Assembly (NCBI GenBank): GCA_036253495.1
Contig: GCA_036253495.1_4125.1
Source of the DNA: a phage
DNA length: 64,000 nucleotides
Reading direction: 5' to 3' (one strand)
In this document: piece by piece, positions 27,783 to 63,230 of the stretch
Layout of the letters: every line of letters begins with the position of its first letter
How positions within the stretch are numbered: position 1 is the first letter of the stretch
Made by a program: the position numbers and the translations under genes
Notes under the pieces: model-generated
Seen by the model: the letters and a program-made list of their open reading frames with translations, nothing else
What the model was told of the DNA's origin: nothing
Database searches by the model: none

Positions 27783-28104
27783 TATTGAGTACATGCACGA
27801 TGGTGATGAAATTTTCATTGTCCAAAAAGAATGCAAGGCTGGACATTGGGTTATCTTCTCTGTAGAAGAGGATGAATCCATTGTATCTTTTATTTCTACT
27901 AAACACAAAGATACGAATTTAGAACTTCTTTACAATTTAAGTGAAGAAGAACTATTTCAAATGAGCACTGCATTTGAATATGATGTATACGAATTATTAG
28001 ATGTACAGAATATTTTGTTGGAGTCTCTTCAGAAACTAAAACACAAAGATTTATTTCTGGTTAAATCATTTATGATGCACAAATATACACTTGAGGTGGA
28101 TTAA
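27766..28104 (+). CDS. FQxS-family protein
   Basis: track ORF; motif SEEELFQMSTAFE. Confidence 0.7.
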   Translation: MGKVVDIEYMHDGDEIFIVQKECKAGHWVIFSVEEDESIVSFISTKHKDTNLELLYNLSEEELFQMSTAFEYDVYELLDVQNILLESLQKLKHKDLFLVKSFMMHKYTLEVD

Positions 28105-37505: not shown

Positions 37506-38108
37506 ATGATCATTGACATGCCTATTCTTAATAAAATGCTTAACCCTGTCATTACGTTAGCTAAAAGTATTTCTAATAATGAAAAGTTGCATCTCCCATA
37601 CTCTATGTTAACGTATGCAACTGATTTTTACAGGATTGAAATCTCGGCATGTGAACAACGAATTACACTAGCATTCAAACGCCTTGGTGCTGGACTTGCA
37701 AATGATTTTGATATTTCACTGATACTTCATGGTGAATTAGAAGATAGTAAAATTCTGTCCTATGAAAGAATTCTTCGCAGTACAAATGAAATAAAATTAT
37801 TCAAAACATTTTCACATTATAATGGTTCTGATGTTTCATATTATTTTGATAAGGATTCATTTAAGAATATCAAAAGTGTTGAAGTGAAAGATTTCAGCGA
37901 AGAATGGTATTTTCAAAATACATTAATTCATTCTTTACCTTCATATGAAGAAATGAAGATGAACATTGATCTTTATGAAAAATTAAAATCAGAACTGAAA
38001 TGTAATTTTCTATTATCAATGAACTACAAAAAGATCAGTACTGATGTGGTATTGGAAGATGAACTAATGAAACGAATTTGGTCTGCTATACCAGTTATTA
38101 AGGAATAA
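37506..38108 (+). CDS. FQxS-family protein
   Basis: track ORF; motif SEEWYFQNTLIHS. Confidence 0.7.
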   Translation: MIIDMPILNKMLNPVITLAKSISNNEKLHLPYSMLTYATDFYRIEISACEQRITLAFKRLGAGLANDFDISLILHGELEDSKILSYERILRSTNEIKLFKTFSHYNGSDVSYYFDKDSFKNIKSVEVKDFSEEWYFQNTLIHSLPSYEEMKMNIDLYEKLKSELKCNFLLSMNYKKISTDVVLEDELMKRIWSAIPVIKE

Positions 38109-49191: not shown

Positions 49192-49220
49192 ATGCCCGAC
49201 TTTGTTCGGGCATCTTTTTA
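49192..49220 (+). terminator. rho-independent terminator
   Basis: ATGCCCGACTTTGTTCGGGCAT hairpin then CTTTTT. Confidence 0.75.
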
Positions 49221-49231: not shown

Positions 49232-49504
49232 ATGGACTATCGAGTACTGAATAGAACATATAAAGCTTTATACAAAACATATATTGAAAGTAAAGTACAT
49301 AATCCTATCATTTATAAAAATCCAGTTTATATTATATGGAATGAATATTTTACAATGATTCAAAATTACTTTTACTCTAACGAAATCTTTATAGATGGTG
49401 AAATGCGTAAGCTAACACGCGTTGATAGTATAGGTGGTGAAATTGTGTTATTCTATACTGATTCTATTATTGGACAACAATCTATAAATTTAGAGATATT
49501 ATAA
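49232..49504 (+). CDS. KYIGK-family small protein
   Basis: track ORF; MDYRVLNRTYK N-terminus; VDSIGGEI block. Confidence 0.65.
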   Translation: MDYRVLNRTYKALYKTYIESKVHNPIIYKNPVYIIWNEYFTMIQNYFYSNEIFIDGEMRKLTRVDSIGGEIVLFYTDSIIGQQSINLEIL

Positions 49505-49770
49505 TGAATTATAAGGATTTACATTTCACCTATAAACTAACATTTTATATGTATCGTTATGCTGATAACAACTTCATGGATAATGCATTTTATCATCGTT
49601 TGTGGAGTGATTATATAAATTCTTTACGTGAACATTTTATAGGTACTATAATTCAATACGAAGGTAAAACAGTAAAAATATTTCAAGTTGATAGTTACAA
49701 CGGGGATCTATGCTTCAAGGGTAGAGATTCTAGTGATGGATTACATGAGATTTATATCTATGAATTATAA
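49504..49770 (+). CDS. KYIGK-family small protein
   Basis: track ORF; MNYKDLHFTYK; HFIGT..VDSYNGDL. Confidence 0.7.
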   Translation: MNYKDLHFTYKLTFYMYRYADNNFMDNAFYHRLWSDYINSLREHFIGTIIQYEGKTVKIFQVDSYNGDLCFKGRDSSDGLHEIYIYEL

Positions 49771-50035
49771 GGATTTACAATTCACGTACAAAATTCTTCA
49801 TGAACAATATGAACGTGGTGAAGGAATATTAACTTACGATGAACGAGATTTTTTTCTTACATTGTGGTGTGAATATTTGGCAATGATTAACGAGATTTTT
49901 GTTGATAAAGAATATATGATTGACGACATGACTGTACGTATTATCAGAATTAAAAGTTATAATGGAAGTCTTGTTGGAATTTACTATAACAATGAAAAGG
50001 CGAAAAGCGGATTTGTTGATTTGGAGTATCTATGA
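49760..50035 (+). CDS. KYIGK-family small protein
   Basis: ATG 49760 (MNYKDLQFTYK; track 49688). Confidence 0.65.
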   Translation: MNYKDLQFTYKILHEQYERGEGILTYDERDFFLTLWCEYLAMINEIFVDKEYMIDDMTVRIIRIKSYNGSLVGIYYNNEKAKSGFVDLEYL

Positions 50036-50295
50036 ACTATAATGATTTACAATTCACGTATCAACTTTTATATGATGATATGAATAACGAATTAGGTTTC
50101 TACTATGAAGTACGTAATAAAATATGGTCAAATTATCTATCTGAGATACAACATCATTTTATAGGACTTCCAATACGTAGAAATAATAAAAACTATCGTT
50201 GTACTGATGTAGTAAGTCATAGAGGTAGGTTGCGTTTAGAATTCTACCGCAGAGACGGGGACTTCATTGGTATAAATTTACTGGATTTTAAATGA
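50032..50295 (+). CDS. KYIGK-family small protein
   Basis: track ORF; MNYNDLQFTYQ; HFIGL..CTDVVSHRG. Confidence 0.7.
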   Translation: MNYNDLQFTYQLLYDDMNNELGFYYEVRNKIWSNYLSEIQHHFIGLPIRRNNKNYRCTDVVSHRGRLRLEFYRRDGDFIGINLLDFK

Positions 50296-50580
50296 TGAAA
50301 AACAACTTAAAGGAAATACAAGTATTTTATAGATTCTTATACTTGTCATATGTAACAGATGAGTACTATGAAAGTGTGTATTATTTTTTTATGGCAACAT
50401 TACCGTACTATAGTAAGAGATTTATATATAGGAAAATCTATCATATCCAATGGTGAAAAATGTACCTGTACAGATGTTGTTAGTTTTAATGGTTCTTTAA
50501 CACTGTGTTTCAGATGCGATAATAATAGTGGGTCATTTTCATTAAACGTATATCAGTTAGAAGGAATAAATTTTGAATAA
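50295..50580 (+). pseudogene. KYIGK-family paralog split by a +1 frameshift
   Basis: N-terminal half (ATG 50295, 56 aa, family-like) in one frame; C-terminal half (YIGKS..CTDVVSFNG) in the +1 frame as track ORF 50359-50580. Confidence 0.45.
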
Positions 50581-50773
50581 GTGTCCATATTGTAACAGTA
50601 CTCAATTAGCTCGTTTCCGCTTAGATTCAGACTGGGCCACTGGTGCTGGGGATTTCTTTCCCATCAATGATGATGCGGAATACACTGAAGAACAGCACAA
50701 AGATTTTGATAAATCATGGCGACCTGACATTGAGTGCATTTATTGCCTTAATTGTGAGCGTGTACATGACTAA
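50573..50773 (+). CDS. small zinc-ribbon protein
   Basis: track ORF 66 aa; CPYC..CIYCLNC. Confidence 0.6.
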   Translation: MNKCPYCNSTQLARFRLDSDWATGAGDFFPINDDAEYTEEQHKDFDKSWRPDIECIYCLNCERVHD

Positions 50774-51029
50774 AGCTGAACTAATAGTTCATACATATAA
50801 AATGATATACAGTACTGAGTTATCCTGTGGTGCAGATAATCCAGTACTGGACTATTTTATAGAATCTTTGAAAGAACATTATATTGGTAAATCACTGATT
50901 CTTAATAATATTAATTTCACTGTAAAGGATGTAGCACCTGGAAAAAACGTACTAATAGTATGTGTTACTTCATCTGATAACCCAGTATACCCAATAACAA
51001 TAATTTTTGAGGTATTAGGTGATTTATGA
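50766..51029 (+). CDS. KYIGK-family small protein
   Basis: ATG 50766 (track 50643); EHYIGKSLIL. Confidence 0.65.
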   Translation: MTKAELIVHTYKMIYSTELSCGADNPVLDYFIESLKEHYIGKSLILNNINFTVKDVAPGKNVLIVCVTSSDNPVYPITIIFEVLGDL

Positions 51030-51316
51030 ATATCATTTTAATACAGAAAACATATGCTATATTGGTGAAAGATTATTCCATTACATTCGATTCACAAGAA
51101 AGTGCTCTACATAACCTATACAAAAACGTAACACAAGAATACAGAAATATGTTTTCTGACTTAGTAGTAGGAAGATATTTCAGTACTAGAAAATATCCAA
51201 AACTTCAAGCAGAGGATGTTTCTTTTTATTTCAATGGTCATATTACTATTCATAGTTTAGACCAAAATTCACCAACGTACTTAAACTTTTCATTCGATGA
51301 GGTAACCTTTTTATGA
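51026..51316 (+). CDS. hypothetical small protein (KYIGK-family-like N-terminus)
   Basis: track ORF 96 aa. Confidence 0.6.
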   Translation: MNIILIQKTYAILVKDYSITFDSQESALHNLYKNVTQEYRNMFSDLVVGRYFSTRKYPKLQAEDVSFYFNGHITIHSLDQNSPTYLNFSFDEVTFL

Positions 51317-51495
51317 GAACATTATTTTTTATCTGGAGTCTTTTTTCTCTTGCAGTACTGACAGTTGCAGGTGCTTATTCATTTTTAACAATGAATACAT
51401 GGTATATCAATTTACTATTTCCAATTGTCGGTGTAGGTTTAGGATTTACTTTACATAGTGTATGTAAGGATTTCAATGACAAATCAAACAAATGA
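51313..51495 (+). CDS. small membrane protein (two TM helices)
   Basis: track ORF 60 aa; ATGA coupling. Confidence 0.55.
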   Translation: MRTLFFIWSLFSLAVLTVAGAYSFLTMNTWYINLLFPIVGVGLGFTLHSVCKDFNDKSNK

Positions 51496-51760
51496 AGTAC
51501 TTATTGCTGAAACAATGAAGATGATTTATAGTATTACTACAGCACAGAATATGCCCTATCCCATTAAGTCTTTATTGAGGACCGTGTATCTTGTGACTGT
51601 GCAGGAATACTATAAATCCAAGCACAAAAGCATTATTAGTGTTTATCGTGATTATGAAAGGATTCGTATTTTGTACTGGAACAAGAACCGAGTACGTTCT
51701 GAATGTGACCTTGCGGACTTCAAATTAGAGAATCTTTATTGTTATAAAGCGGGACAGTAG
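51476..51760 (+). CDS. hypothetical small protein
   Basis: SD TAAGGA + ATG 51476 (track 51458). Confidence 0.6.
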   Translation: MTNQTNEVLIAETMKMIYSITTAQNMPYPIKSLLRTVYLVTVQEYYKSKHKSIISVYRDYERIRILYWNKNRVRSECDLADFKLENLYCYKAGQ

Positions 51761-51818
51761 TATAAGTAGTGATATAATTGTTGGTATGGAATAATAACTA
51801 ACACAAGGAGCGTGTAGA

Positions 51819-52547
51819 GTGATTGACCGTATCAGATTTGCCAGCGAGTTAGCAAACCAATTAAACATTGCAAATTTCCAAATGCTAACATCCGTAATGG
51901 CAGAACATGCAACTGCATATTCAGTAAGTGGTGTCCAATGCGGACAAGAGAATTTACTAGCTGATGTATACAGTGAAGTGCAAGGTAAACAATATTCAGT
52001 CAAAACATACAAGGATAAGTTTGTTAGTCTGTATATGAACGGCGATATTGAAGAAGAACGTAAGTTTACCGATTTTATTATTGAACGTCGTGTATCAGGT
52101 GTGTCAAACCCGAATGCTGCAAGTGATGTAGTATTTGATGAAGTACTGAAAGATATATACGAAAATGAAGCGAAAAGTAAGAATCATTACAATGTACGTG
52201 AAACTAACACAGTGCTCTTGGGATATGATGAAGACGAATTTTTCTATTATTTCCGTATAACTGAAGTACCTTTTGATTATAAAAAACCACATACCACATG
52301 TGCTCGTGAATTTACTGAAAAGAGTAAAAACTACAAAAAGCACGAAGGCAATCGTTGTAGTGTAAATGGTTATGATGAGAATGGTGTACACATTTATGAA
52401 TGGGTACATCCGAACTGTCAGACTTACACACGTTGCCTTAAAAAGAGATATAATTTAGAAGAACATGAGTCTTTCTACTTCAAAGTTAAGAAGCAAGATT
52501 ATAACAGACCAGACGATTCTGAATTACTTGGTATGATTTACTTCTAA
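51819..52547 (+). CDS. hypothetical protein (242 aa)
   Basis: track ORF; SD AAGGAG + GTG 51819. Confidence 0.65.
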   Translation: MIDRIRFASELANQLNIANFQMLTSVMAEHATAYSVSGVQCGQENLLADVYSEVQGKQYSVKTYKDKFVSLYMNGDIEEERKFTDFIIERRVSGVSNPNAASDVVFDEVLKDIYENEAKSKNHYNVRETNTVLLGYDEDEFFYYFRITEVPFDYKKPHTTCAREFTEKSKNYKKHEGNRCSVNGYDENGVHIYEWVHPNCQTYTRCLKKRYNLEEHESFYFKVKKQDYNRPDDSELLGMIYF

Positions 52548-52555
52548 GGTAAGTT

Positions 52556-52834
52556 ATGAATTTACAAAGAGATGTGTGGACATATGAATATCTTTTAGAA
52601 CTTTATGGTGATATGTATATTAAAAATAAACCATACATAGACGATATAAGGGCTATGATAGATGATTTTTCTTCTGAGTTTATTCCACTTTATACTAATA
52701 AAGAAGTTACACATAAATCAATGAATAAATCAGGTATCATTGATGAAATTGATTTTGATACACATGGTGTGTATTTTTATATTATTTTCTCCAATGATAC
52801 TGTTGGTATATACACGTATAAAGAATTAAAATAA
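52556..52834 (+). CDS. hypothetical protein
   Basis: track ORF 92 aa. Confidence 0.6.
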   Translation: MNLQRDVWTYEYLLELYGDMYIKNKPYIDDIRAMIDDFSSEFIPLYTNKEVTHKSMNKSGIIDEIDFDTHGVYFYIIFSNDTVGIYTYKELK

Positions 52835-52841
52835 GTACAGG

Positions 52842-52867
52842 CCAGCATGGATTGCTGGTCTTTTTTG
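52842..52867 (+). terminator. rho-independent terminator
   Basis: CCAGCATGGATTGCTGG hairpin then TCTTTTTT. Confidence 0.75.
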
Positions 52868-52877
52868 TAGGTACATT

Positions 52878-53177
52878 ATGGACAAAATACAATTAGTTAG
52901 TAGTACTATAACAATGCTTGCTGATGTTGCCAGATGGAGCAGTGGTGGTTCCGTTAGTACTATGCTCGGTATACTCACGCAATACACCTATACATGCAAT
53001 GGAATGTTATATGGTAAGGAGGTTGAAATTGATGATCCCTATGGAATTCCCATATCATATGACCGAGGTGTAATAAAAAGGGTTACTCTGAGACTAACAT
53101 ATCATCCATATTTTGTAGTAGAACTTCCAGATGGAAAATTAAGAGAATATGTTGCTAAAAGGTTAAAACTAAAATGA
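52878..53177 (+). CDS. hypothetical protein
   Basis: track ORF 99 aa. Confidence 0.6.
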   Translation: MDKIQLVSSTITMLADVARWSSGGSVSTMLGILTQYTYTCNGMLYGKEVEIDDPYGIPISYDRGVIKRVTLRLTYHPYFVVELPDGKLREYVAKRLKLK

Positions 53178-53752
53178 ATATTGTAGAATTAAGTACTAAG
53201 CTGATTACTATGCGTAACGAGTGGTACAATTGGTATTATAACGGTACTGACATGGATTTTTCAAAATATCCATTTATGGAATCAGGATGTGATTCAAGAT
53301 ACCGCTGGTTGAGTAAAGATGATTCTGGTTTACATATTCGAGTTGATGATAGTGGTCAGGGAATTATAAAAGATTTACTTCAAGTTGAAGAACTCGTCCA
53401 TGATGAGTGGTGTGATAATGATCCATACCTAGGAAATATAATTTATGTAACTGAAGATGATTGTATATTCGTCATTCAGCGTCATGGTGATTCTATGTTT
53501 TATATAGCAGACAGCAGTACACCTGAAGGTGCAGCATCAGATGGTCTTATTCCTAAGATTAATATATTAGATTTTGGCTTACCTGAGCACTTCCAGATGA
53601 GTACTCTATTCGATATTCCACCGTTTGAGTTCTTTGACGAATTTAAATTGTACTACAGTGATCTTCAGAAATTGAGTACAGAGAGTCGTATTGAAATAAC
53701 TGTCAGGTACATGGACGGGGCAAAATTAACCGACACGGGGATAGAATTTTGA
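53174..53752 (+). CDS. FQxS-family protein (outlier copy)
   Basis: track ORF; motif PEHFQMSTLFD. Confidence 0.65.
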   Translation: MNIVELSTKLITMRNEWYNWYYNGTDMDFSKYPFMESGCDSRYRWLSKDDSGLHIRVDDSGQGIIKDLLQVEELVHDEWCDNDPYLGNIIYVTEDDCIFVIQRHGDSMFYIADSSTPEGAASDGLIPKINILDFGLPEHFQMSTLFDIPPFEFFDEFKLYYSDLQKLSTESRIEITVRYMDGAKLTDTGIEF

Positions 53753-54438
53753 TTAAAGATTTAGATAGAATTTTATATGTACTAAGGGGTGTAATTACTT
53801 TACAACCACAGATTAACCGCATGGAGAGAGCCTTTGAATTAAAATCAAGAGAAACTCCATATTCACATATATCAAATGTAGTTGGCTCATTCTGCTCTGA
53901 AGACTCTGCATATGATATATATGTGTGTGAAGTACAGCCCAGTAATGATCTTGGTTTTGCAATCTTCGATAAAAATCAAGTACTGGTCAGTATGTTTCAG
54001 TGCAATAATCCTTTCTGGAAAACATGCCTGTACCCTGATTGGGCTATGCTTGACCCTACGAAGAGTAAGATTAAAGTATATGACTCTAAGAATGAAGAAG
54101 TTGTTATTGATTTGGATGAATCAATGACAGAGGAAGAACACTTCCAGCTTATGATGATGCGTGCGATGCCAGACTATGAAGCAATGATTAACACAGTACA
54201 ATACATTAAGGATACGATGAGATCATTGTGTAATCATGAGTTTTGTCATCCAGTATCTTATGAACATTTGGATTTAGATTTCAGTACTATCAAGTTTAAA
54301 GATAGTGTTATTGAATATATCCAAGAGAACACTAAATTTGATTTTATTAGTACAATGACAAATAATCCAAATACTAATTTCAGGCATCAGTACAATGAAT
54401 CTTTGTCTAATGGTCGAGATACCAGTTGGTGGAAATAA
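53749..54438 (+). CDS. FQxS-family protein (outlier copy)
   Basis: track ORF; motif EEEHFQLMMMRA. Confidence 0.65.
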   Translation: MIKDLDRILYVLRGVITLQPQINRMERAFELKSRETPYSHISNVVGSFCSEDSAYDIYVCEVQPSNDLGFAIFDKNQVLVSMFQCNNPFWKTCLYPDWAMLDPTKSKIKVYDSKNEEVVIDLDESMTEEEHFQLMMMRAMPDYEAMINTVQYIKDTMRSLCNHEFCHPVSYEHLDLDFSTIKFKDSVIEYIQENTKFDFISTMTNNPNTNFRHQYNESLSNGRDTSWWK

Positions 54439-54439
54439 T

Positions 54440-54703
54440 ATGAATATCCAAGATAGATTGCAATTGTTGCACACACTTGAAGAAGCTGCTTTTGAACTTG
54501 TTAATAAAATTGCACAAGAACTCCCAAAAGGAACCAACATTCGTGTTCGTGAAATGGATTATTTAACGGGAGAAATTGAAGAAAAAGTTCTAACAGTGAT
54601 CAAAGTAACATACTATGAATCAGAGTTATCAATTCAATGTAAGTCAGATAATGGTTACGTTTCCTACTATGGCACAGATGTAGATATAGAGGTAATTAGA
54701 TGA
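54440..54703 (+). CDS. hypothetical small protein
   Basis: ATG 54440 (track 54395). Confidence 0.55.
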   Translation: MNIQDRLQLLHTLEEAAFELVNKIAQELPKGTNIRVREMDYLTGEIEEKVLTVIKVTYYESELSIQCKSDNGYVSYYGTDVDIEVIR

Positions 54704-55845
54704 GTAATTTACGAGAAATATACAATGATTTAATGGAACTATGTGAATCTAATGATGCATTTTTCTATATAGATCACACAAGCCCTGGTGGTGGTTTATA
54801 CCGTGTATTCACCTATCGTCTGGCATCTTATACCGATTTCACAAATAAAAATGCACTAGAAACTCGTGGTTCTATGTGGGAAATTGATTCCAACGGAATT
54901 ATGATTCGTTGTGCAGCACGTACAATGAAAAAGTTCTTCAATGCATATGAAAACCCGTACACAATGTTCAGTACTGATACTACCTGTGATGATATTGCGG
55001 TTGTAATGCCTAAGCTAGATGGATCTATCATCAGCACATTCCGTGATAATGATGGTGAAATCCGTTGCAAATCACACACTTCGTTATCTTCTGACCATGC
55101 TATTAACAGTACTCGACTTTTGAACGAGAACCAAAATCTCTATCAATACATTGATGAAGCAGACCGTTTGGGCTATACTGTGAATCTGGAATACACAAGC
55201 CCAGAGTATCGAATTGTGTTACCATATCAGGTGGAACAGTTATTTGTTCTTAACGTTCGTCATCGTATTAGTGGTGAGTTGTTATGCGGTAAAGCACTAC
55301 GTGATAAGTTTCCATGCCTTTCACAGTACAGTACTAATATGACAGGTAATGACATTCATCATACATTCCCGATTATGCCTACATTTAAAGAGTCAATCGA
55401 TAAAGTACGTTCTATGATTGACATTGAAGGTTTTGTGTGTATAATGAAAGATGGTACAATGTGCAAAATCAAAACTGACTGGTATTGCTCTTTGCATTTA
55501 ACAAAAGATTCCATTCTTATTGATTCCCATTTATATGAAGCTGTACTGACTGGTGCAAGTGATGACTTAAAACAATTGTTCAGTACTGATACATATGCTA
55601 TGGATAAGATATTAAGAATGGAACAATTGGTATTTTCGTGCTATAATGCTTTACAAGATGAGGTAGAAAGCTTCGTCCATGCATACAAGCACTTAGAGCG
55701 AAAGGAATTCGCACAAAAGGTTCAGCAAGATTTACCGAATGTATTGAACCGACAAGGCTTGGCCTTTGCGTTGTACAATGGCAAAAGTGTCGATTATAAA
55801 GAGACTTTACTAAAGTACTACAAAGATGTACTAAAGGATTTTTAG
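54700..55845 (+). CDS. rnlA: RNA ligase 1 (T4 RnlA-like)
   Basis: 381 aa; collinear with T4 RnlA as I recall it: YNDLMELC N-terminus, ligase lysine motif PKLDGS, MKDG..KIK..DWY, GASDDLK. Confidence 0.85.
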   Translation: MSNLREIYNDLMELCESNDAFFYIDHTSPGGGLYRVFTYRLASYTDFTNKNALETRGSMWEIDSNGIMIRCAARTMKKFFNAYENPYTMFSTDTTCDDIAVVMPKLDGSIISTFRDNDGEIRCKSHTSLSSDHAINSTRLLNENQNLYQYIDEADRLGYTVNLEYTSPEYRIVLPYQVEQLFVLNVRHRISGELLCGKALRDKFPCLSQYSTNMTGNDIHHTFPIMPTFKESIDKVRSMIDIEGFVCIMKDGTMCKIKTDWYCSLHLTKDSILIDSHLYEAVLTGASDDLKQLFSTDTYAMDKILRMEQLVFSCYNALQDEVESFVHAYKHLERKEFAQKVQQDLPNVLNRQGLAFALYNGKSVDYKETLLKYYKDVLKDF

Positions 55846-55874
55846 TACTAACTAGCCCAGCACAAGGAGAAGTG

Positions 55875-56129
55875 ATGGCTAAACCTAAGTATAAAAATGA
55901 TGGTTCCCTTTCTCCTACTGAGTTCAGGAAAATACAACAAGAAATCGATGATTTACAGCACAAACGCTCAATGAAAGGTGTGAAGATTAGTAAGAAGCGA
56001 ATCGAGAATACTTTTGGGTGTAGTAGTACTGAATATAAGAAGAAAAGGAAACCAAAGGATGTTAAGCCGAGAATACATGATGTAACTCGCTATACATCAA
56101 AACGTGAAAATAAATTCGATCCACTATAA
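55875..56129 (+). CDS. hypothetical basic protein
   Basis: SD AAGGAGA + ATG 55875 (track GTG 55872); Lys/Arg-rich. Confidence 0.6.
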   Translation: MAKPKYKNDGSLSPTEFRKIQQEIDDLQHKRSMKGVKISKKRIENTFGCSSTEYKKKRKPKDVKPRIHDVTRYTSKRENKFDPL

Positions 56130-56138
56130 GGAGTTCAT

Positions 56139-56375
56139 ATGAAAGTTGAAGTTCAGCATAGTATTGTTCAGGATATGTCAGTGGTTAAGTTTCTTTCTCT
56201 GAAAGATTACTTCAGATGTATCAAGTTCCTTGAAGAATCTCAATTACAGTGGACCCCCTTAAAGTACAGTTCATCCAATGACACTGCTAGTATTCGTTGT
56301 GATGAAGCTGTACTTGTAAAAATCTCCAAGCGATTTGGAGTTGGGAAATACAATGAAAAACAATCATTCAAGTGA
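56139..56375 (+). CDS. hypothetical protein
   Basis: track ORF 78 aa. Confidence 0.6.
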   Translation: MKVEVQHSIVQDMSVVKFLSLKDYFRCIKFLEESQLQWTPLKYSSSNDTASIRCDEAVLVKISKRFGVGKYNEKQSFK

Positions 56376-56607
56376 TTTGTTATATTATAAAGTACTATCA
56401 GAATGTTTGACAGATGTATTGTACCGTGAGAGTAATACTCTACGTGCAAAATATATTAACAAAAGAGTACGTTATAAATCATCTTATGATGGGATGAATG
56501 TTTATGGTAAAATCACTAATGTATATGTAGATGATGATTTTACATTGAATATCACTGTCGATAATTGTATTGGTATCTCAATTGATGATATTATTGAGGT
56601 AATCTAA
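56353..56607 (+). CDS. KYIGK-family small protein
   Basis: ATG 56353 (track 56335); AKYINKRV. Confidence 0.6.
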   Translation: MKNNHSSDLLYYKVLSECLTDVLYRESNTLRAKYINKRVRYKSSYDGMNVYGKITNVYVDDDFTLNITVDNCIGISIDDIIEVI

Positions 56608-56918
56608 TGAATAAAGCATTAAAAGAACTTCATAATTTAATGAATGCAGAAATTGAATTAACTAATACTATTTCTGAAATTGTTCATGATATGATTACAC
56701 AATACAAGAAATCACTCATTGGTAAGAAAGTTGAATGCTGGGATTACAACACTAAAACATGGTTCGAAACTATCATTAGTGATGTTAATGTTAAATTTCA
56801 TGTAGTTACTCATCACATTTCTGACGAGTGCTATGTAGAAGTAACTATAGGACACAACACGCGACATGAACGTTTTTCGTGGTACAATCTAAAGAATGTG
56901 AAATTTATTGAGGATTAA
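56607..56918 (+). CDS. KYIGK-family small protein
   Basis: track ORF; SLIGKKV. Confidence 0.65.
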   Translation: MNKALKELHNLMNAEIELTNTISEIVHDMITQYKKSLIGKKVECWDYNTKTWFETIISDVNVKFHVVTHHISDECYVEVTIGHNTRHERFSWYNLKNVKFIED

Positions 56919-57851
56919 ATGCCAACTATTACACTAACAGTTGGATTGCCAGGATGTGGTAAAACCACGTGGGCAGTGCAAGAAATTAAAAAAGCAAAGT
57001 CCAAGACTATCAACATCAACCGTGATGATATTCGAGAGTCTATGGCTGGGTCACATGATGCTTATAAATTCACTGATGCGAACGAGAAGTACGTAACTAA
57101 TCAACAGTTCAGTGCAGCAAACGCCGCAGCAGCGAATGGATGGAACATTATTGTGTCCGATACGAACCTGAAACAAGGTTTTCGTGATGAATGGAAACGT
57201 TGGGCTAAAGATAATGGCTACGACTACAAAGAAAAGAACTTCTACGAAGATTTTGTACCGAATGAAGACCGTGGTGCAGATGTTCATGAATTCTTTAAGA
57301 TTAAGGAATTCGTGAAGCTCTGTAAGAAACGCAACCTTCTTCGTGAGCGTTCAGTACAAGATGAAATCATTGACACTATGGCAGATACGTACTATTATAG
57401 TAAGGCGATGCACATTGGTTACTATGGTAATGCACGTGAAGCTGCTATCATTGTTGATATCGACGGTACTCTTGCTCATAAGTGGGGACGTAACCCGTTT
57501 GATGAAAGTACTGTCCTTCAGGATACACCAGATGAAGAAGTAATTCTGTCTGTCATTGCTGAGGCTGTTTTCCATAAGCGTAAGGTAATCGTCATGAGTG
57601 GGCGTACTGAAGGGTGTCGTGCTGATACTGAACAGTGGCTTAAGAATTGGGGCATTCCCTACGATGTATTGTTAATGCGAGCTATCGATGATAAACGTCC
57701 TGATGATGTTGTCAAATTCGAGTTGTATATGAATAACGTTGTTAATCATTACGATGTTAAGAAAGTATTTGATGACAGGGCCGCCGTTGTATTCATGTGG
57801 CGTAAGCTACTAGGCTTGAAAGTATTTCAGGTGGAACCTGGACTATTTTGA
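56919..57851 (+). CDS. pnk: polynucleotide 5'-kinase / 3'-phosphatase (T4 Pnk/PseT-like)
   Basis: 310 aa; kinase P-loop GLPGCGKTT, phosphatase DIDGTL, C-terminal RKDDV..K-like block; collinear with T4 Pnk as I recall it. Confidence 0.85.
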   Translation: MPTITLTVGLPGCGKTTWAVQEIKKAKSKTININRDDIRESMAGSHDAYKFTDANEKYVTNQQFSAANAAAANGWNIIVSDTNLKQGFRDEWKRWAKDNGYDYKEKNFYEDFVPNEDRGADVHEFFKIKEFVKLCKKRNLLRERSVQDEIIDTMADTYYYSKAMHIGYYGNAREAAIIVDIDGTLAHKWGRNPFDESTVLQDTPDEEVILSVIAEAVFHKRKVIVMSGRTEGCRADTEQWLKNWGIPYDVLLMRAIDDKRPDDVVKFELYMNNVVNHYDVKKVFDDRAAVVFMWRKLLGLKVFQVEPGLF

Positions 57852-57861
57852 TTATTACAAA

Positions 57862-57889
57862 GGGATCAGTACTGATCCCTTTTCTTTTA
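57862..57889 (+). terminator. rho-independent terminator
   Basis: GGGATCAGTACTGATCCC hairpin then TTTTCTTTT. Confidence 0.75.
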
Positions 57890-57903
57890 ATTTAGGTGAT
57901 ATA

Positions 57904-58164
57904 ATGGATAATAGTTATGATGTACATTTCAAACAATGCCAGTTGGTTTTACACTCCCTAATGGAAGAGTTGCGAATCAAGTACATAGGCAAAATTGCTA
58001 CATGTTTATCAACTGGAAGACGTGGGCAAATTGTAGAGATTTATTATTCTCCACTTAGTGATGAAATTAAAATAAAAGCTAAAATATTCCTAACTGGATC
58101 TAACAATTTCTTGGGTGAACATATGGTAAAAATTATCTCTGAATTATCGATAACGGATGAATAA
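57904..58164 (+). CDS. KYIGK-family small protein
   Basis: track ORF; IKYIGKIA. Confidence 0.7.
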   Translation: MDNSYDVHFKQCQLVLHSLMEELRIKYIGKIATCLSTGRRGQIVEIYYSPLSDEIKIKAKIFLTGSNNFLGEHMVKIISELSITDE

Positions 58165-58166
58165 AC

Positions 58167-58433
58167 ATGGATATTAATAAAGATTTTAGATTTATCAATT
58201 CGCATATACAAGTACTGAAAACATTAGTAAAACAAGTATCAGAAAAATACACAGGAACTTATGTTAGATGTGCTTTTGATGCAAATGACTGGCAACGAAT
58301 TATAAAAATAGATTCAGTTTATCTTGATACAAATAATAGTATTACAGTTTCAGGTATTGATATGTATGGTCATCGATATCAATTTACTACAAGAGCCACA
58401 ATAACTACAGTGGATGGATATGAATACGAATGA
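58167..58433 (+). CDS. KYIGK-family small protein
   Basis: track ORF; EKYTGTYV. Confidence 0.7.
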   Translation: MDINKDFRFINSHIQVLKTLVKQVSEKYTGTYVRCAFDANDWQRIIKIDSVYLDTNNSITVSGIDMYGHRYQFTTRATITTVDGYEYE

Positions 58434-58719
58434 ATTCCAAGCATTATTGAAAACATTATATCTTCTTAAAGAAGAATCTCTTGCAATGTATAATGAAAAA
58501 CAATACAAGTTTGAAGAACAACTCATTCATTTTCATGATGAATATCTTGACTTTTTGAATAAAAAATACTCAAATGTTCAGTGCAAATATCGAGGTAGTG
58601 ATGTTATTATTACCGAAATCGAATCCAGTACTTACGGATATCCATACCTTTGTTGCAAATATATCCCAAGTAATATAACATTTCGCTCAAGAATGTATTC
58701 GAGGTTTATTTTTTCATGA
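58414..58719 (+). CDS. hypothetical small protein (KYIGK-family-like)
   Basis: track ORF 101 aa. Confidence 0.55.
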   Translation: MDMNTNEFQALLKTLYLLKEESLAMYNEKQYKFEEQLIHFHDEYLDFLNKKYSNVQCKYRGSDVIITEIESSTYGYPYLCCKYIPSNITFRSRMYSRFIFS

Positions 58720-58997
58720 ATAATGATTCATTGAAGTTTTTTTATTATCATTATCGTATTTTACGTAGTTTATATTTTTCAGAATCCGATGAAAGATTAC
58801 TAACATCATTATCAGTACTGATGGATAATTACGAGAACGAATTATCAAAAGTGGTTTTTGGTGTCAATGTTCTAGATGATACCGATTTAACATGGACAAT
58901 TATTGAAGTGGCGACCTGGAATGGTAATATTTTGTACAGGTGCGAACGAGCAGGTTTTTTATGGGATGCAACATATGACGAGATTAGAATTGTATGA
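58716..58997 (+). CDS. hypothetical small protein (KYIGK-family-like)
   Basis: track ORF 93 aa; ATGA coupling. Confidence 0.55.
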   Translation: MNNDSLKFFYYHYRILRSLYFSESDERLLTSLSVLMDNYENELSKVVFGVNVLDDTDLTWTIIEVATWNGNILYRCERAGFLWDATYDEIRIV

Positions 58998-59274
58998 CAG
59001 GCAAGTGAAATTGATAAGAGATACTCGTCGTTTCTTTCATACTCAATTAGTAGACCCATGTTATGATATTTCCGATTTCCTTGAAACCTATCTCCTTGAT
59101 CTAACTACACCACTGCTTAAAAAATACGTAGGAACAAAAGCTATATATCTTGGAAGAGAAGTTGAAATTACCAACATATCATATTCTTATGGGGCATACA
59201 TGTATACGGCAAAATCTGATAATGGACAAAGATATTATGCAATACGATCAAGAGAACTTACTATTATTGGATAG
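58975..59274 (+). CDS. KYIGK-family small protein
   Basis: ATG 58966/58975 (track 58903); KKYVGTKA. Confidence 0.55.
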   Translation: MTRLELYDRQVKLIRDTRRFFHTQLVDPCYDISDFLETYLLDLTTPLLKKYVGTKAIYLGREVEITNISYSYGAYMYTAKSDNGQRYYAIRSRELTIIG

Positions 59275-59302
59275 GCATCTTGCTATTCTTATCGACCTTG
59301 TG

Positions 59303-59566
59303 ATGGAAAGTGATGTAAAAATTTTTGAAAGTAGATTTCTTGAGGATTATAAAACTGAATTGCAAGAACTGTACAAAGGTAAAAAAGTATTACTTAGTAC
59401 TGGTGACTATGGTAAAATTGAGTACGTGTATTATGAATGGAAAAAGGTTATATATTTTATAAAAACCAAAATAAAATACCAAAATAAAACAAGAACCTAT
59501 AAAGCATATTACGATTCAAATGAGATAGAGATTATATATGACCAACACGTTAATAACAAAAAGTGA
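59303..59566 (+). CDS. KYIGK-family small protein
   Basis: ATG 59303 (track 59150; alt 59222); ELYKGKKV. Confidence 0.5.
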   Translation: MESDVKIFESRFLEDYKTELQELYKGKKVLLSTGDYGKIEYVYYEWKKVIYFIKTKIKYQNKTRTYKAYYDSNEIEIIYDQHVNNKK

Positions 59567-59861
59567 ATTAGATTATTTGAATTATATAAACAGATACTTT
59601 CTGATTCTATATAATATACTTCTTGAAGAACAATGCACTAAATCAAACCATCAGTTATATAACTATATTAACTGTATAATTAGTGAAATATATGAATCAT
59701 TGGAAAAGAGATTTAAGTACAGAACTATTAAGTGCGAAGATGATATTGTATATATTCATGGTGTTTTTGGTACAGGATATGGAATATTCGTTGATTATAA
59801 AATACACCCATTTGATCCGTACATAGAAAATAGTATGTACATAGAAGAGATTGAACTATGA
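59538..59861 (+). CDS. hypothetical small protein, paralog of 59858-60175
   Basis: track ORF; VFGTGYGIFVDY. Confidence 0.6.
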   Translation: MTNTLITKSELDYLNYINRYFLILYNILLEEQCTKSNHQLYNYINCIISEIYESLEKRFKYRTIKCEDDIVYIHGVFGTGYGIFVDYKIHPFDPYIENSMYIEEIEL

Positions 59862-60175
59862 CACAAGAAGAATATAATAAATTAATAATGTACGAGAATC
59901 ATTTTAATTATTGTCTGAAATGGTTATTGTACATTGATAACGTTGAGATGGATATGTACAGAAAAGAGGTGAATAAACGTGTTAAAGATTTCTATTACGA
60001 ATTGACTGATCTTTTTTATAATAATGTAGTATATGAAGCAAATACCAGTCGTGATTATGACCTTTATATCAAGCAAATATGGGGTACTGACTACGGTCTG
60101 ATGATTGATTGCAGTACTGATGTTAATACAGACAGACCCAGTACTACATTGTATCTGGATGAGATTTTCATATGA
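59858..60175 (+). CDS. hypothetical small protein, paralog of 59538-59861
   Basis: track ORF; IWGTDYGLMIDC; ATGA coupling. Confidence 0.6.
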   Translation: MTQEEYNKLIMYENHFNYCLKWLLYIDNVEMDMYRKEVNKRVKDFYYELTDLFYNNVVYEANTSRDYDLYIKQIWGTDYGLMIDCSTDVNTDRPSTTLYLDEIFI

Positions 60176-60474
60176 ATGAACTATTACTTTGTCATAAAAC
60201 ATACATTATGCTATTCAGAACGTGCCATGATATGCGAATTGAGGGGATACTAGACTACCCAACTATGATGATTAACTTCAGGGTGTTAATGGATTCATAT
60301 TCACAATCTGTTATTGATGCATTTGAAGGTAGAGAAATAAAGTTCAAAAATGCCAGGACAAATAATGAGCTATGTGATACAATTAAATCAGTGGGGATTT
60401 CGGTTCCAAATGTGTACGTAATCCCATTGATGTACGGAAAAGTAGTATCCACTAACGAAATTATTAGTATATGA
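60172..60474 (+). CDS. hypothetical small protein
   Basis: track ORF 100 aa; ATGA coupling. Confidence 0.6.
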   Translation: MNELLLCHKTYIMLFRTCHDMRIEGILDYPTMMINFRVLMDSYSQSVIDAFEGREIKFKNARTNNELCDTIKSVGISVPNVYVIPLMYGKVVSTNEIISI

Positions 60475-60770
60475 TTAAAACATTATATGAAGCAGAAGAA
60501 ACATATAAACTTCTGTGGGAAACTTTTATTTTTGACAAATACTATAATAGAACTGAATGGTTAGAGGTAAGTAAAATATATCTTCAAATTTTAAATGATT
60601 ATTTTTGTCCGTTCGTTGCTGAATGTAAAAATAATCCAATTGAAGAAATTAATATAATCGAAATAGTAGATGGGTTTGGTGCGTGGTTGATATACCAAGA
60701 CAACTATCACTTTTCTAATTATATCGAAGATATCGGTAAAATAATTGTAATTAAAGGAGTCATACTATGA
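60471..60770 (+). CDS. hypothetical small protein
   Basis: track ORF 99 aa; ATGA coupling. Confidence 0.6.
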   Translation: MIKTLYEAEETYKLLWETFIFDKYYNRTEWLEVSKIYLQILNDYFCPFVAECKNNPIEEINIIEIVDGFGAWLIYQDNYHFSNYIEDIGKIIVIKGVIL

Positions 60771-61384
60771 TTTATGCACTATACGTACTATACGTACTTG
60801 GTCTGGTTATTGGTTGGTTTTTGGCAAAATCTTACAACCGTAATGCACTGGCATACACAGTATTTGGTATTATTTTTACGCCAGTACTAGAACTAGGTTT
60901 ACTAATTATTATGGGTCGCCGTGACATGACACCAGTCATTGACGATAATCGTGATAAAGCAGTACATGATGTACCAGTTTTTGAAGGATATACGCCAACT
61001 TTAACTGTTGATGACGTTTACATTGATGGTGCTGCTGAAGAAGTTAAATCAGTTCAGGAAGAAGTTGAAGAAGTTCCAGTAAAAGAAGAACCACAACCAA
61101 AAGCATCAACAACTAAAACAAAAGCAAAAACTTCTAAGAAAACAAAAGGTCGCAAGACTAGCACTAAAAATACCAAAAAAACCAGTACAACTCGCAAAAG
61201 CACTAAAACTGATAAGGAAGCATCTTCCAGTACTACCAGTACTGATGATGGTACAAGCACTGTTCTACTGACAGCAGCAACAACTGCCGCAATTATCAGT
61301 ACTTCATCCTATAGCGACTCATCTTCCTCTTATGACAGTGGCTCTTGTGATAGTTCAAGCTCAAGTTCAGGAAGCTGTGATTAA
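60767..61384 (+). CDS. membrane protein with Ser/Thr/Lys-rich low-complexity tail
   Basis: track ORF 205 aa; two N-terminal TM helices; tail KTKAKTSKKTKGRKTSTKNTKKTSTTRKSTK..SSSSSSGSCD. Confidence 0.65.
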   Translation: MIYALYVLYVLGLVIGWFLAKSYNRNALAYTVFGIIFTPVLELGLLIIMGRRDMTPVIDDNRDKAVHDVPVFEGYTPTLTVDDVYIDGAAEEVKSVQEEVEEVPVKEEPQPKASTTKTKAKTSKKTKGRKTSTKNTKKTSTTRKSTKTDKEASSSTTSTDDGTSTVLLTAATTAAIISTSSYSDSSSSYDSGSCDSSSSSSGSCD

Positions 61385-61728
61385 TGGTTCCGTTATCATC
61401 TGAACTAAGGTACTTCGAATCTCTCCTTGATCTTCAATCAGAATTCGTTAGTACCTTAAAAAATAAATTAATAGGCAAAAAAGTAAAATTCACTCAAGAG
61501 TATATTGACCACATCAATAAGGCTAAGGAGGATGAAGTAGATTCTGACTGGATTTATTGTGATGATGAAGCTTCTCATATCAACGAAAATACAGTTATGT
61601 TTATTACTTTGTTGCGAGTAAAGAATTCATCAATCTATGTTGATGTTGAATATGAAAATCCAAAAAGTTCTGAATGGTACGGATTCACTTACCGTTTAGA
61701 TCGTTTAGAACTAATAGAAGAGGAATAA
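61384..61728 (+). CDS. KYIGK-family small protein
   Basis: track ORF; NKLIGKKV. Confidence 0.65.
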   Translation: MVPLSSELRYFESLLDLQSEFVSTLKNKLIGKKVKFTQEYIDHINKAKEDEVDSDWIYCDDEASHINENTVMFITLLRVKNSSIYVDVEYENPKSSEWYGFTYRLDRLELIEEE

Positions 61729-61971
61729 ATGATTTTATTTTTTGCTTTGTATGGTGTAGGAGTACTGAGTACATTTATCAGTACTTTTCTTATCATCAAT
61801 TGGGGTTCTTTTAAAGATACCCCTACCACAATGATTAATATTAGTACCTGCTCTATGTTATCAGTACTGTGGCCTGTGTCGTTGGTGTATCTTTTCATTT
61901 CAATCTGTAAAGATTTTTACGATACACTAACAAAATTCAAGAAGAAGAAACATGACAAAGACGGAAATTGA
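61729..61971 (+). CDS. small membrane protein (two TM helices)
   Basis: track ORF 80 aa. Confidence 0.55.
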   Translation: MILFFALYGVGVLSTFISTFLIINWGSFKDTPTTMINISTCSMLSVLWPVSLVYLFISICKDFYDTLTKFKKKKHDKDGN

Positions 61972-62206
61972 ACAGTTAAAGATGTTACAATCGTTATCTG
62001 ATGATTTTGTCCAACGTGCTAAGCACAAATATATTGGTCAAGAAATTCTTCTTAAACACTCCAGAGGTTGGCAAAAAATATGCATAAGAGATATGGGAAC
62101 ATATTATGGTGATGTGCGATATTACGTAGATTGCTATGTTAATGACCAAATTGCCAATACTCAAGTTGTCACCTATGATAAAATTATATGGATTAAAGAA
62201 CAATGA
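61952..62206 (+). CDS. KYIGK-family small protein
   Basis: track ORF; HKYIGQEI. Confidence 0.65.
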   Translation: MTKTEIEQLKMLQSLSDDFVQRAKHKYIGQEILLKHSRGWQKICIRDMGTYYGDVRYYVDCYVNDQIANTQVVTYDKIIWIKEQ

Positions 62207-62946
62207 AACATTTCTTAGAAGTAACAGTTCCTGATGAAAAAGATTTGTATATAGTAGGAGACATTCACGGTAATGCAAAACTATGGGAACATACCAAGAA
62301 AGAATTTGGTATTACTCCTGAAGATTATGTATTCAGTTTAGGCGATTTAATTGACAGAGGTGAGCAAAGTGCTCACCTTTTGTTTGAGTTTTTATTCGCT
62401 GAGAATCGATATATGATCATGGGCAATCATGAATCGATGTGTATTGATTCTGCAACTCATCGTGACTGGTATCATTGCTGGACACAGAATGGGGGCGATA
62501 AGTTCCTGGAAGAAGTTGGTGTATCAGGAGTGGAATTCTTCCGTCAGTACTTGAACCAGCTACCTATGATTATCCAAATCAATCACAGAGGACTCAAGAT
62601 TGGCCTCGTACATGCAAGTGTAGACCTTAAGCACACTGACTGGAATAAGTTCATTACTGGGACAAAATCAATGTCCAGTGATACAATTGAGTCATGCCTA
62701 TGGGACAGAAAGACATTTGATTTCTGTAAAGCTAACAACGTCTTTAATGCACCACGTATTGCTAACGTCGATTACGTTCTTAGTGGTCATACCGCTGTGT
62801 TTGATCCCCTAATTTATGGAAACCGTATCTGGATTGACAGTCAGTTCCTTACTGGTGATTTGACTATTGCTACCCCACAAGGTGGTAAGATGCGTTATTT
62901 GCGTAAAGAAAAAGACGAATATTCATTCAGTCGATTCAAAAGGTAA
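62203..62946 (+). CDS. PPP-family Ser/Thr protein phosphatase (lambda-phosphatase-like metallophosphoesterase)
   Basis: GDIHGN, GDLIDRG, GNHE motifs in canonical order; ATGA coupling. Confidence 0.85.
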   Translation: MKHFLEVTVPDEKDLYIVGDIHGNAKLWEHTKKEFGITPEDYVFSLGDLIDRGEQSAHLLFEFLFAENRYMIMGNHESMCIDSATHRDWYHCWTQNGGDKFLEEVGVSGVEFFRQYLNQLPMIIQINHRGLKIGLVHASVDLKHTDWNKFITGTKSMSSDTIESCLWDRKTFDFCKANNVFNAPRIANVDYVLSGHTAVFDPLIYGNRIWIDSQFLTGDLTIATPQGGKMRYLRKEKDEYSFSRFKR

Positions 62947-62951
62947 TTATT

Positions 62952-63230
62952 ATGCATGACATGATTGATAGTGCATTAACCGAATTTAACTTTTTTAAAA
63001 AATCACTCGATACAATAATCAATGATACCAACCAACAAATGAAAGACCATTTAAGTGATAAATTGGTTGGTCGTTGGGTTGAGCTACCATATATAGATGG
63101 AACTACTGTTGGTGTGATTCATAGAATTGTAACAATTCATGAAGTGAAGGTGTATGTTGAAATTTTGGTTGACAATGAAACTAACAAATGTTTTGTACAA
63201 TTAAGCACTGAAGATTTAACTTTTTTATAA
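62952..63230 (+). CDS. KYIGK-family small protein
   Basis: track ORF; DKLVGRWV. Confidence 0.65.
   Translation: MHDMIDSALTEFNFFKKSLDTIINDTNQQMKDHLSDKLVGRWVELPYIDGTTVGVIHRIVTIHEVKVYVEILVDNETNKCFVQLSTEDLTFL

Follow-up and report, generated by a model that had tools for sequence, protein, structure and literature searches.

The gene array and its enzyme backbone

A 14-kb locus (49232–63230, plus strand) in the 64,000-nucleotide stretch of phage DNA analyzed here (hereafter, the window) contains 22 small genes that profile searches identify as a single family. The source is a jumbo phage of the genus Asteriusvirus that infects E. coli, and the window is 98.4% identical to Escherichia phage A4. 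The family genes, which encode proteins of about 75–115 amino acids (aa), occupy the slots between the genes of a conserved enzyme backbone (cytidylyltransferase, RnlA, Pnk and a NinI-like phosphatase) and are packed tightly against the backbone genes or overlap them. An earlier note on this DNA placed the boundaries of the array correctly, with the first family member beginning at 49232 and the last one ending at 63230, but its count of about 18 copies is too low: the analysis yields 22–24, that is, 22 identified by profile and two probable members (59538 and 59858; genes are designated here by their first position). A terminator-like hairpin is located at 49192–49213, just 5' of the first member. 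A promoter scan was uninformative, with 95 sites compared to 98.6 expected.

All genes of the array are on the plus strand. Subfamily I (49232–51029) starts with 49232..49504 (90 aa, two predicted N-terminal helices and a barrel; phmmer links, HMM E=3.7e-10), 49504..49770 (88 aa, motif HFIGT; phmmer links, HMM E=1e-17), 49760..50035 (91 aa, with the start as in the A4 annotation; phmmer links and HMM) and 50032..50295 (87 aa, an AlphaFold target). The next gene, 50292..50580, is frameshifted in the window by one extra T in the T-run at about 50393–50399, and its C-terminal part (50359–50580) is recognized with E=1.7e-14; the same gene is intact and encodes 95 aa in A4 and in three other public assemblies. 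The gene at 50766..51029 (87 aa, motif HYIGK; phmmer links and HMM) matches phrog_33961. The members that come next are 51026..51316 (96 aa, recruited in HMM iteration 1, E=4.3e-11), 52556..52834 (92 aa, HMM E=3.5e-11), 52878..53177 (99 aa, recruited late, HMM E=1.2e-10) and 54440..54703 (87 aa; HMM), which is located just 5' of rnlA with a 4-nt overlap. No other member is kept as consistently in the four carrier phages as 54440, which has 78%, 55% and 32% identity to its counterparts in 121Q, JNE01 and RaK2, respectively.

The gene at 56353..56607 (84 aa, subfamily II; HMM, and HHalign probability of 87% to the 58167 group) is followed by 56607..56918 (103 aa, a match to phrog_31355; HMM), which is directly 5' of pnk, the latter beginning at the next base. 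Further along are 57904..58164 (86 aa), which carries the canonical KYIGK motif and is the other AlphaFold target, and 58167..58433 (88 aa), a local hot spot of divergence from A4 (47 nt differences, 81% aa identity). Three members, 58420..58719 (99 aa; HMM), 58716..58997 (93 aa; HMM) and 60172..60474 (100 aa; HMM E=3.9e-6), have no counterpart in 121Q or JNE01. The start of 58966..59274 (102 aa; HMM) is taken as in P0027, the gene being unannotated in the A4 GenBank record, and that of 59222..59566 (114 aa; HMM) as in P0031, whereas the A4 record gives 109 aa from 59237. The two probable divergent members are 59538..59861 (107 aa), which the HMM search misses, and its paralog 59858..60175 (105 aa). 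The array is completed by 61384..61728 (114 aa, in which an acidic insertion follows the motif; HMM), 61952..62206 (84 aa; HMM), which overlaps the start of the phosphatase gene by 4 nt and for which the A4 start is equivalent to 61982, and 62952..63230 (92 aa, a match to phrog_38615; HMM), directly 3' of the phosphatase. Thus, members do flank rnlA, pnk and the phosphatase gene, as previously noted, and some of them overlap the start codons of the enzymes. Two further genes, 51476..51760 and 60471..60770, resemble the family in size and position but are doubtful members, with HHalign support absent (probabilities of 7% and 4%, respectively).

Profile evidence, motif and predicted fold

A phmmer search connects just the six genes in 49232–51029 and, in addition, three pairs. 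An iterative HMM search seeded with these six genes recruits genes of the locus only at every step, and 0 of the 133 upstream ORFs. A stricter run (inclusion threshold E<1e-3), which covered the window and five relatives (452 ORFs), converges at 70 members, including 22 from the window; in shuffled controls, the best E-values are 0.014–0.2. In a genome-wide scan of 1,314 six-frame ORFs from the window and the remaining A4 genome, only the 22 members reach E<=4e-6, the next best value being 0.012, and none of the approximately 1,300 other ORFs match the family profile. A model built from the window alone identifies independent members in RaK2 with E-values down to 6e-8. Pairwise searches underestimate the family whereas profile methods join its members.

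An HMM-HMM comparison with HHalign adds the 59538/59858 pair, which matches the family profile with the probability of 76%, compared to 0.7% or less for unrelated neighbor genes. The other two paralog families of the window yield at most 0.6%, so that kinship with these is rejected. Subfamily I matches the other groups, including subfamily II, only weakly (26% or less) in this comparison of shallow ortholog groups, and the link between the two subfamilies is drawn from the HMM iterations and the similarity of the predicted folds. Members from the window match phrog_32291, 21004, 33961, 29519, 37322, 38615 and 31355, with E-values down to 2.6e-55. All seven groups are labeled “unknown function”; the family united by the profile analysis is distributed in PHROGs over at least seven groups.

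The sequence features that drew attention to these genes in the earlier note hold to different extents. The “KYIGK” motif is positionally conserved when relaxed to [YFL]-x-G-[KTR]-x-[VI], but its literal form, (K/H)(Y/F/L)(I/V)G(K/T), is found in only 5 of the 22 members. A still looser pattern, [YFL]-x-G-[KTRQ]-x-[VIAFCL], is present in 14 of the 22 members compared to 11 of the 151 other ORFs (Fisher p=6e-9); in one of the 14, 54440, it is found at residue 76, away from the usual position. Across the alignment of 70 sequences, the motif columns are fixed, with 99% hydrophobic residues at the Y/L/F position, 67% glycine, 47% lysine and 99% hydrophobic residues at the V/I position. The helical start “MNY.DLQFTY” is a feature of the 49232–51029 subfamily rather than of the entire family, and “CTDVVS” is confined to two genes of the window (50032 and 50292). 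All well-conserved columns of the alignment are hydrophobic or glycine, with none that is polar or basic. The relaxed motif lies where the chain turns out of the last helix and enters the first strand, and is a structural signature rather than an active site.

AlphaFold models of two proteins, one per subfamily (50032 and 57904, with pLDDT of 92.1 and 73.9, respectively, the second model being moderately confident), consist of N-terminal helices followed by four strands. The order of the secondary structure elements is the same in both models, that is, the two subfamilies are not predicted to adopt unrelated folds, and both match the same SH3 and CarD chains. The predicted domain belongs to the fold class of SH3-like small beta-barrels, which are compact meanders with four to five strands in about 50 residues, and for each copy, one or two N-terminal helices packed on such a barrel are predicted. 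A Foldseek search against viral models finds the full helix-plus-barrel arrangement only in uncharacterized proteins of 121Q-like and RaK2 phages. The closest known systems by fold are SH3-like small barrels, namely the Tudor-like RNA-polymerase-interacting domain of CarD/TRCF, KOW, Sm/Hfq and SH3.

The previous guess of a small SH3/KOW-like barrel is therefore supported by the two models, at the level of fold class only. The Pfam KOW, SH3, LSM and Tudor models match no member; for KOW (PF00467), there is no match in 26 members even at E<=1, and the Sm1/Sm2 sequence motifs and Pfam LSM/Hfq matches are likewise absent. Searches of Pfam, PADLOC and PDB sequences give no consistent match. A match of one member to YajC (PF02699) was rejected, with a score of 14.4 bits against a cut-off of 28.2 and with the family lacking a membrane segment; so was an anti-phage defense identity, with one stray PADLOC match (E=0.0056) among 26 members. 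A weak match to the ribosomal protein eS7 profile (E=0.0026) spans only a K-x-x-G-K-x-V stretch and is attributed to chance. Taken as a whole, the small genes very likely comprise one homologous family with an SH3-like fold.

Distribution, turnover and selection

The family model detects 14–18 copies in 121Q, JNE01 and Klebsiella phage RaK2, at positions equivalent to those in the window, but no member in GAP32, CBB, fHe-Yen9-04 and fENko-Kae01, all of which possess the same enzymes in the same order. Genes located 5' of rnlA in GAP32, CBB and fHe-Yen9-04 were considered as diverged members and rejected (HHalign probability of 0.7% or less). When 1.84 billion representative proteins are searched with the profile, 23 small proteins match, and all of these (18 retrieved and five from earlier searches) resemble the family; two matches to giant proteins, a BspA-type LRR protein and an EGF-repeat protein, are false positives. 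Searches of a collection of 5.8 billion proteins return close relatives only, because E-values scale with the whole database. By these searches, the family appears restricted to one lineage, Asteriusvirus and Alcyoneusvirus. In the literature searched, the family is undescribed, and no transcriptome was found for either genus.

The number of copies per inter-enzyme slot differs among close relatives; for example, the slot after Pnk contains 7, 3, 4 and 5 copies. Between A4-like and 121Q-like phages, most members are 32–45% identical or have no counterpart, compared to 76–90% identity for the enzymes. Over time, copies arise, disappear and are replaced, with the core residues fixed and other positions diverging fast. 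Relative to A4, pN/pS is 0.19 for the family and 0.135 for other genes. The family genes are real and selected, and the value of 0.19 indicates purifying selection rather than the positive selection that an arms race predicts, at least over the short distance between the window and A4. The family is real, fast-evolving and limited to two phage genera. Most members are acidic (median pI 5.5–5.9, with 82% of the members below pI 7), are not annotated as virion proteins and have no predicted membrane segments. With this acidic pI, binding to proteins seems more likely than binding to nucleic acids.

Possible functions and significance

The explanation that best accounts for these observations overall, and to which an even chance can be given, is that a family of small proteins has expanded in tandem within a single lineage, its members serving as diversified binders. 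The barrel would be a stable scaffold that displays variable surfaces, as suggested by the hydrophobic or glycine nature of all well-conserved columns, and each copy would bind a different partner. The partners would probably be host or phage proteins of the cytoplasm because most members are acidic, not annotated as virion proteins and devoid of predicted membrane segments. More tentatively, and somewhat short of even chances, these diversified cytoplasmic binding modules may function in host takeover or counter-defense, and would not be an obligatory part of the RNA-repair enzymes.

The earlier note suggested that the members may assist RnlA, Pnk and the phosphatase as subunits with an accessory, specificity or regulatory role. 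Each of the three enzyme genes has members directly adjacent to it, the 3' ends of 54440 and 61952 overlap enzyme starts by 4 nt, 56607 stops one base before pnk, and a member 5' of rnlA is kept in the window, 121Q, JNE01 and RaK2. Packing and overlap of this kind could reflect a functional tie to the RNA-repair genes, especially for 54440, which might be exceptional among the members in having a subunit-type tie to rnlA. However, an obligatory partnership with T4-type RnlA/Pnk repair does not fit the four phages in which the enzymes are syntenic and the family is undetectable, nor the unrelated genes at the position 5' of rnlA in three of these; moreover, 22–24 copies exceed the needs of three enzymes, the slots differ in copy number between closely related phages, and the divergence of most members greatly outpaces that of the enzymes, so a subunit role for the family is poorly supported and improbable. 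Another reading is that the members bind nucleic acids in the manner of Sm/Hfq, KOW or Tudor proteins, for example, as RNA chaperones or as factors that modulate transcription or translation, and that their location near the RNA-repair genes reflects an action on RNA. In the Sm layout, too, an N-terminal helix precedes a bent beta-sheet, and the neighboring genes encode RNA and DNA enzymes; against this possibility, which is unlikely albeit less so than the subunit role, are the acidic or neutral pI of 82% of the members, a weak argument against RNA binding, the lack of well-conserved polar or basic positions, and the absence of Pfam LSM, Hfq, KOW and Tudor matches from all members.

It is quite improbable that the small genes comprise two or more unrelated sets that share size and a short G-K-x-V motif by chance. 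Pairwise searches do join only subsets, subfamily I is weakly connected to the other groups by HHalign, and the literal motif is rare, but the HMM iterations recruit genes of the locus and none of the upstream ORFs, shuffled controls are weaker, the models of both subfamilies share the order of elements and the SH3/CarD matches, and the other two paralog families of the window remain outside. The least probable alternative, with very little in its favor, is that the genes are functionless leftovers of tandem duplication that fill the spare coding capacity of the capsid: gene turnover is high, several copies are missing from close relatives and 50292 is frameshifted in the window, yet pN/pS indicates purifying selection, the frames are intact, tightly packed and kept across two genera, and 50292 itself is intact in four other public sequences.

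Returning to the diversified binders, a more specific version, which is no likelier than nucleic-acid binding, is that the array is a repertoire of inhibitors or adaptors on an SH3-like scaffold, each of which would neutralize one host factor or deliver it for degradation. Candidate targets are the RNA-cleaving toxins of abortive infection systems, the damage from which is repaired by RnlA, Pnk and the phosphatase, so that the locus would be a “block and repair” counter-defense island. The members, which are putatively cytoplasmic, mostly acidic, variable outside the core and in copy number, and located among repair enzymes, are compatible with such an island.

An array of small genes of this kind is a paralog expansion typical of jumbo phages, which is an ordinary type of feature; the fold assignment is new. 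T4-like hyperplastic regions, the multigene families (MGFs) of ASFV and the “genomic accordions” of poxviruses contain fast-turnover accessory genes between core genes, with varying copy numbers. The array resembles these systems in the turnover of accessory genes between core genes and in copy-number variation among relatives, but differs in that, for such systems, experiments have tied these genes to host range or immune evasion, whereas here we infer the tie. Among jumbo phages, Bacillus phage G encodes about 35 zinc-ribbon copies (PMC7824862), and about 10% of the RaK2 proteins are stated to be paralogs (PMC3622015). The likeness to these expansions includes many diverged tandem copies of a small domain in a phage of over 300 kb and a narrow lineage; unlike the zinc ribbons of phage G, the domain is a helix plus an SH3-like barrel, and genes of a conserved enzyme backbone lie between the copies, which form no uninterrupted block.

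Jumbo phages carry hundreds of genes without known function, of which paralog arrays make up a sizeable share. Here, at least seven separate “unknown” PHROG groups are joined into one family with a fold, a locus and a narrow distribution, and about 24 anonymous genes per genome become one tractable question, namely what the array binds. If the copies are diversified binders of host factors, the array would provide new inhibitors of bacterial defense or housekeeping proteins; otherwise, the result still makes for better annotation of phages in the genera Asteriusvirus and Alcyoneusvirus, including several under study for therapy.

Membership, conserved positions and predicted fold

Pairwise phmmer comparison of all plus-strand ORFs of the window links only the six genes at 49232-51029, and three more pairs, 58167/61982, 54440/58903 and 59538/59858 (58903 and 61982 are alternative starts of the genes at 58966 and 61952), are added when ORFs of related phages are included. 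Taken alone, these results would suggest that the earlier note, which described about 18 small paralogs between 49232 and 63230, merged too many genes, but profile methods contradict this. An HMM built from the six genes and iterated with a cut-off of E<0.01 recruits 18 genes and points to two more; the top non-members at each step are small genes of the same region, whereas the 133 ORFs that lie before position 49200 contribute no recruit at any step. A stricter run (inclusion E<1e-3) over 452 ORFs from the window and the syntenic loci of phages JNE01, 121Q, RaK2, GAP32 and fENko-Kae01 converged at 70 members, namely 22 in the window, 18 in 121Q, 16 in JNE01 and 14 in RaK2, with none in the GAP32 and fENko-Kae01 loci; the best shuffled-sequence control reached E=0.014. 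A model derived solely from the window sequences matches RaK2 proteins with E-values as low as 6e-8, and therefore the family signal is not circular. With the rest of the Escherichia phage A4 genome added (1,314 six-frame ORFs, each of at least 50 aa), the family model detects 22 genes at E<=4e-6, followed by a match at E=0.012; by this sequence criterion, the family is confined to the 49232-63230 locus. HHalign comparison of the 70-sequence profile with the unrecruited neighbors gives 76% for the 59538/59858 pair, 7% for 51476, 4% for 60471 and at most 0.7% for six unrelated neighbors. Given the HMM runs, the genome scan and HHalign, we count 22 firm and 2 probable members in the window, so that the family is both confirmed and enlarged.

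HHalign on shallow ortholog groups delineates a tight group, denoted subfamily II (56353, 56607, 57904, 58167/61982, 61384, 62952 and 59237, the last being an alternative start of 59222; probabilities 37-95%), with a weak link (<=26%) to the 49232 group; the 49232-51029 set is denoted subfamily I. In PHROGs, the tested members fall into seven groups, each labelled unknown function.

The motif (K/H)(Y/F/L)(I/V)G(K/T) previously proposed for these proteins occurs in its literal form in just 5 of the 22 members but holds in a loose form, [YFL]-x-G-[KTRQ]-x-[VIAFCL], that is present in 14 of 22 members compared to 11 of 151 other ORFs (Fisher p=6e-9). When the 70 members are aligned with the HMM as guide, the motif falls at constant positions, beginning with Y/L/F (hydrophobic in 99%); one variable residue separates this from G (67%) and K (47%), and a second variable residue precedes V/I (hydrophobic in 99%). 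The remaining well-conserved columns are hydrophobic (30, 50, 53, 61, 63 and 79) or glycine (59), and, among polar positions, only the motif lysine has a single residue shared by more than about a third of the members. This pattern of conservation suggests a structural rather than a catalytic role.

The model of 50032 from subfamily I, produced from a 24-row paralog alignment (pLDDT 92.1, pTM 0.78), contains helices 3-18 and 25-43 followed by strands 47-50, 53-63, 66-72 and 78-82; that of 57904 from subfamily II (pLDDT 73.9) contains one helix, 3-27, and strands 31-33, 40-51, 54-63 and 69-74. A Foldseek search of predicted viral structures identifies the complete helix-plus-barrel fold only in uncharacterized proteins of 121Q-like and RaK2 phages (TM-scores 0.6-0.8). 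Thus, the earlier guess of a small SH3/KOW-like barrel is supported as a fold class; sequence profiles assign no membership in the KOW, SH3, Sm or Tudor families.

Gene organization and relatives of the locus

The 49232-63230 region aligns from end to end with Escherichia phage A4 (ON286972, Asteriusvirus, 355 kb) at 98.4% identity; roughly half of it aligns, at ~86% identity, with 121Q, PBECO4 and about 30 further jumbo coliphages. Divergence from A4 is concentrated in patches at 58167-58433 (47 nt differences), 51313-51495 (22), 53749-54438 (24) and 62203-62946 (22), the rest being ~99.5% identical, which suggests recent recombination with other Asteriusvirus genomes. A 358,987-bp contig (AAREHQ020000002.1) of an assembly labelled Escherichia coli (GCA_011911785.2) is ~99.5% identical to the window across 3.3 kb and, judging from this stretch and its phage-genome size, may be a complete Asteriusvirus genome inside a bacterial assembly.

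The A4 annotation of the region lists 34 hypothetical proteins, RNA ligase, 3'-phosphatase/5'-polynucleotide kinase and serine/threonine phosphatase. All genes are on the plus strand and tightly packed, with many overlaps of 4 nt or 1 nt and, in most cases, a purine-rich stretch 5' of the start. Gaps with terminator-like hairpins are found only at 49192-49213, 52839-52861 and 57859-57882; therefore, family and enzyme genes probably share a small number of long transcripts. An extra T (T7, not T6) at about 50393-50399 splits the member at 50292-50580 into two ORFs. The run is T6 and the 95-aa gene intact in A4, in GCA_011911785.2, in a Logan assembly and in an ENA contig; the additional T is due either to a sequencing error in the homopolymer or to a mutation of very recent origin. 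For the 102-aa member at 58966-59274, the GenBank record of A4 lists no CDS (gap 79004-79242), but other pipelines call the gene (database protein P0027).

Six phages share a backbone in the same order: a zinc-ribbon gene, a 242-aa gene, RnlA, two small conserved genes, Pnk, a membrane/low-complexity gene and the phosphatase. The zinc-ribbon-like 66-aa protein at 50573-50773 carries two CxxC pairs; its identity to the counterparts in 121Q and RaK2 is 100% and 71%, respectively, compared to 32-45% for its family neighbors. The larger genes at 53174-53752 and 53749-54438 have weak paralogs in the window at 27766-28104 (E=3e-4) and 37506-38108. The 205-aa protein at 60767-61384 has a pair of membrane helices at the N-terminus and a long low-complexity tail rich in Ser, Thr and Lys; it keeps its anchor position across Asteriusvirus, yet is just 39-41% identical between phages. 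In the Klebsiella phage fENko-Kae01 record (ENKO_106), a Pnk-like kinase and DNA ligase are noted as identified by LC-MS/MS; if purified virions were analyzed, enzymes would not be expected there.

Turnover, distribution and possible functions

Slots between the backbone genes hold varying numbers of family copies; the slot that follows Pnk contains 7 copies in the window, 3 in 121Q, 4 in JNE01 and 5 in RaK2. Comparison of the window phage with 121Q shows 76-100% identity for the enzymes and several other small genes, and only 32-45% for most family members relative to their best counterparts; for five members (58420, 58716, 58966, 59222 and 60172), neither 121Q nor JNE01 has a counterpart. 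GAP32, CBB, fHe-Yen9-04 and fENko-Kae01 possess the backbone and no detectable family member; the genes upstream of rnlA in the first three were considered as diverged members and proved unrelated. Searched with the family profile, 1.84 billion representative proteins yield 23 small proteins, 18 of them retrieved and five known from earlier searches, all resembling the family, and two repeat-protein false positives. The family appears to be limited, as far as sequence profiles reach, to Asteriusvirus and Alcyoneusvirus.

The members form one family, with a conserved core and variable non-core positions, and a set of several unrelated families is very unlikely; copy number changes fast. We tentatively propose that one scaffold presents different surfaces, the members being binding modules that would target host or phage proteins in the cytoplasm and serve takeover or counter-defense. 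The suggestion of the earlier note that they are accessory or regulatory subunits of RnlA, Pnk and the phosphatase, for which 54440, upstream of rnlA, is the best candidate, is mostly unsupported and appears quite improbable given that sister genera retain the adjacent enzymes without family members. Nucleic acid binding in the manner of Sm, KOW or Tudor domains is unlikely and is weakened by the mostly acidic charge (median pI 5.9 in the window and 5.5 overall, with 82% of members below pI 7). Relative to A4, synonymous differences in the family amount to 60.5 and non-synonymous ones to 46.5 (pN/pS 0.19, and 0.135 for other genes), indicative of purifying selection on both; that the members are functionless duplicates is barely credible. 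The "structural protein" label, widely used elsewhere in the A4 record, is attached to no family member.

The window encompasses two other paralog families: ~25 tandem small genes (66-96 aa, predicted helical consensus) at 8359-14942 and 23745-24169, unrelated to the SH3-like family (HHalign 0.6%), and ~23 genes (102-210 aa, acidic consensus) at 12958-37026, unrelated to either (<=0.4%). Jumbo phages are known to carry paralog arrays: in RaK2, about 10% of the proteins are reported as paralogs (PMC3622015), as are 22 ORFs of CBB (PMC5259590), Bacillus phage G carries about 35 zinc-ribbon copies (PMC7824862), and a 2026 review mentions arrays of >30 similar genes (PMC13282480). Our literature search found no published description of the present family or its fold. 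The family is no surprise but represents a clean annotation and a tractable experimental target.
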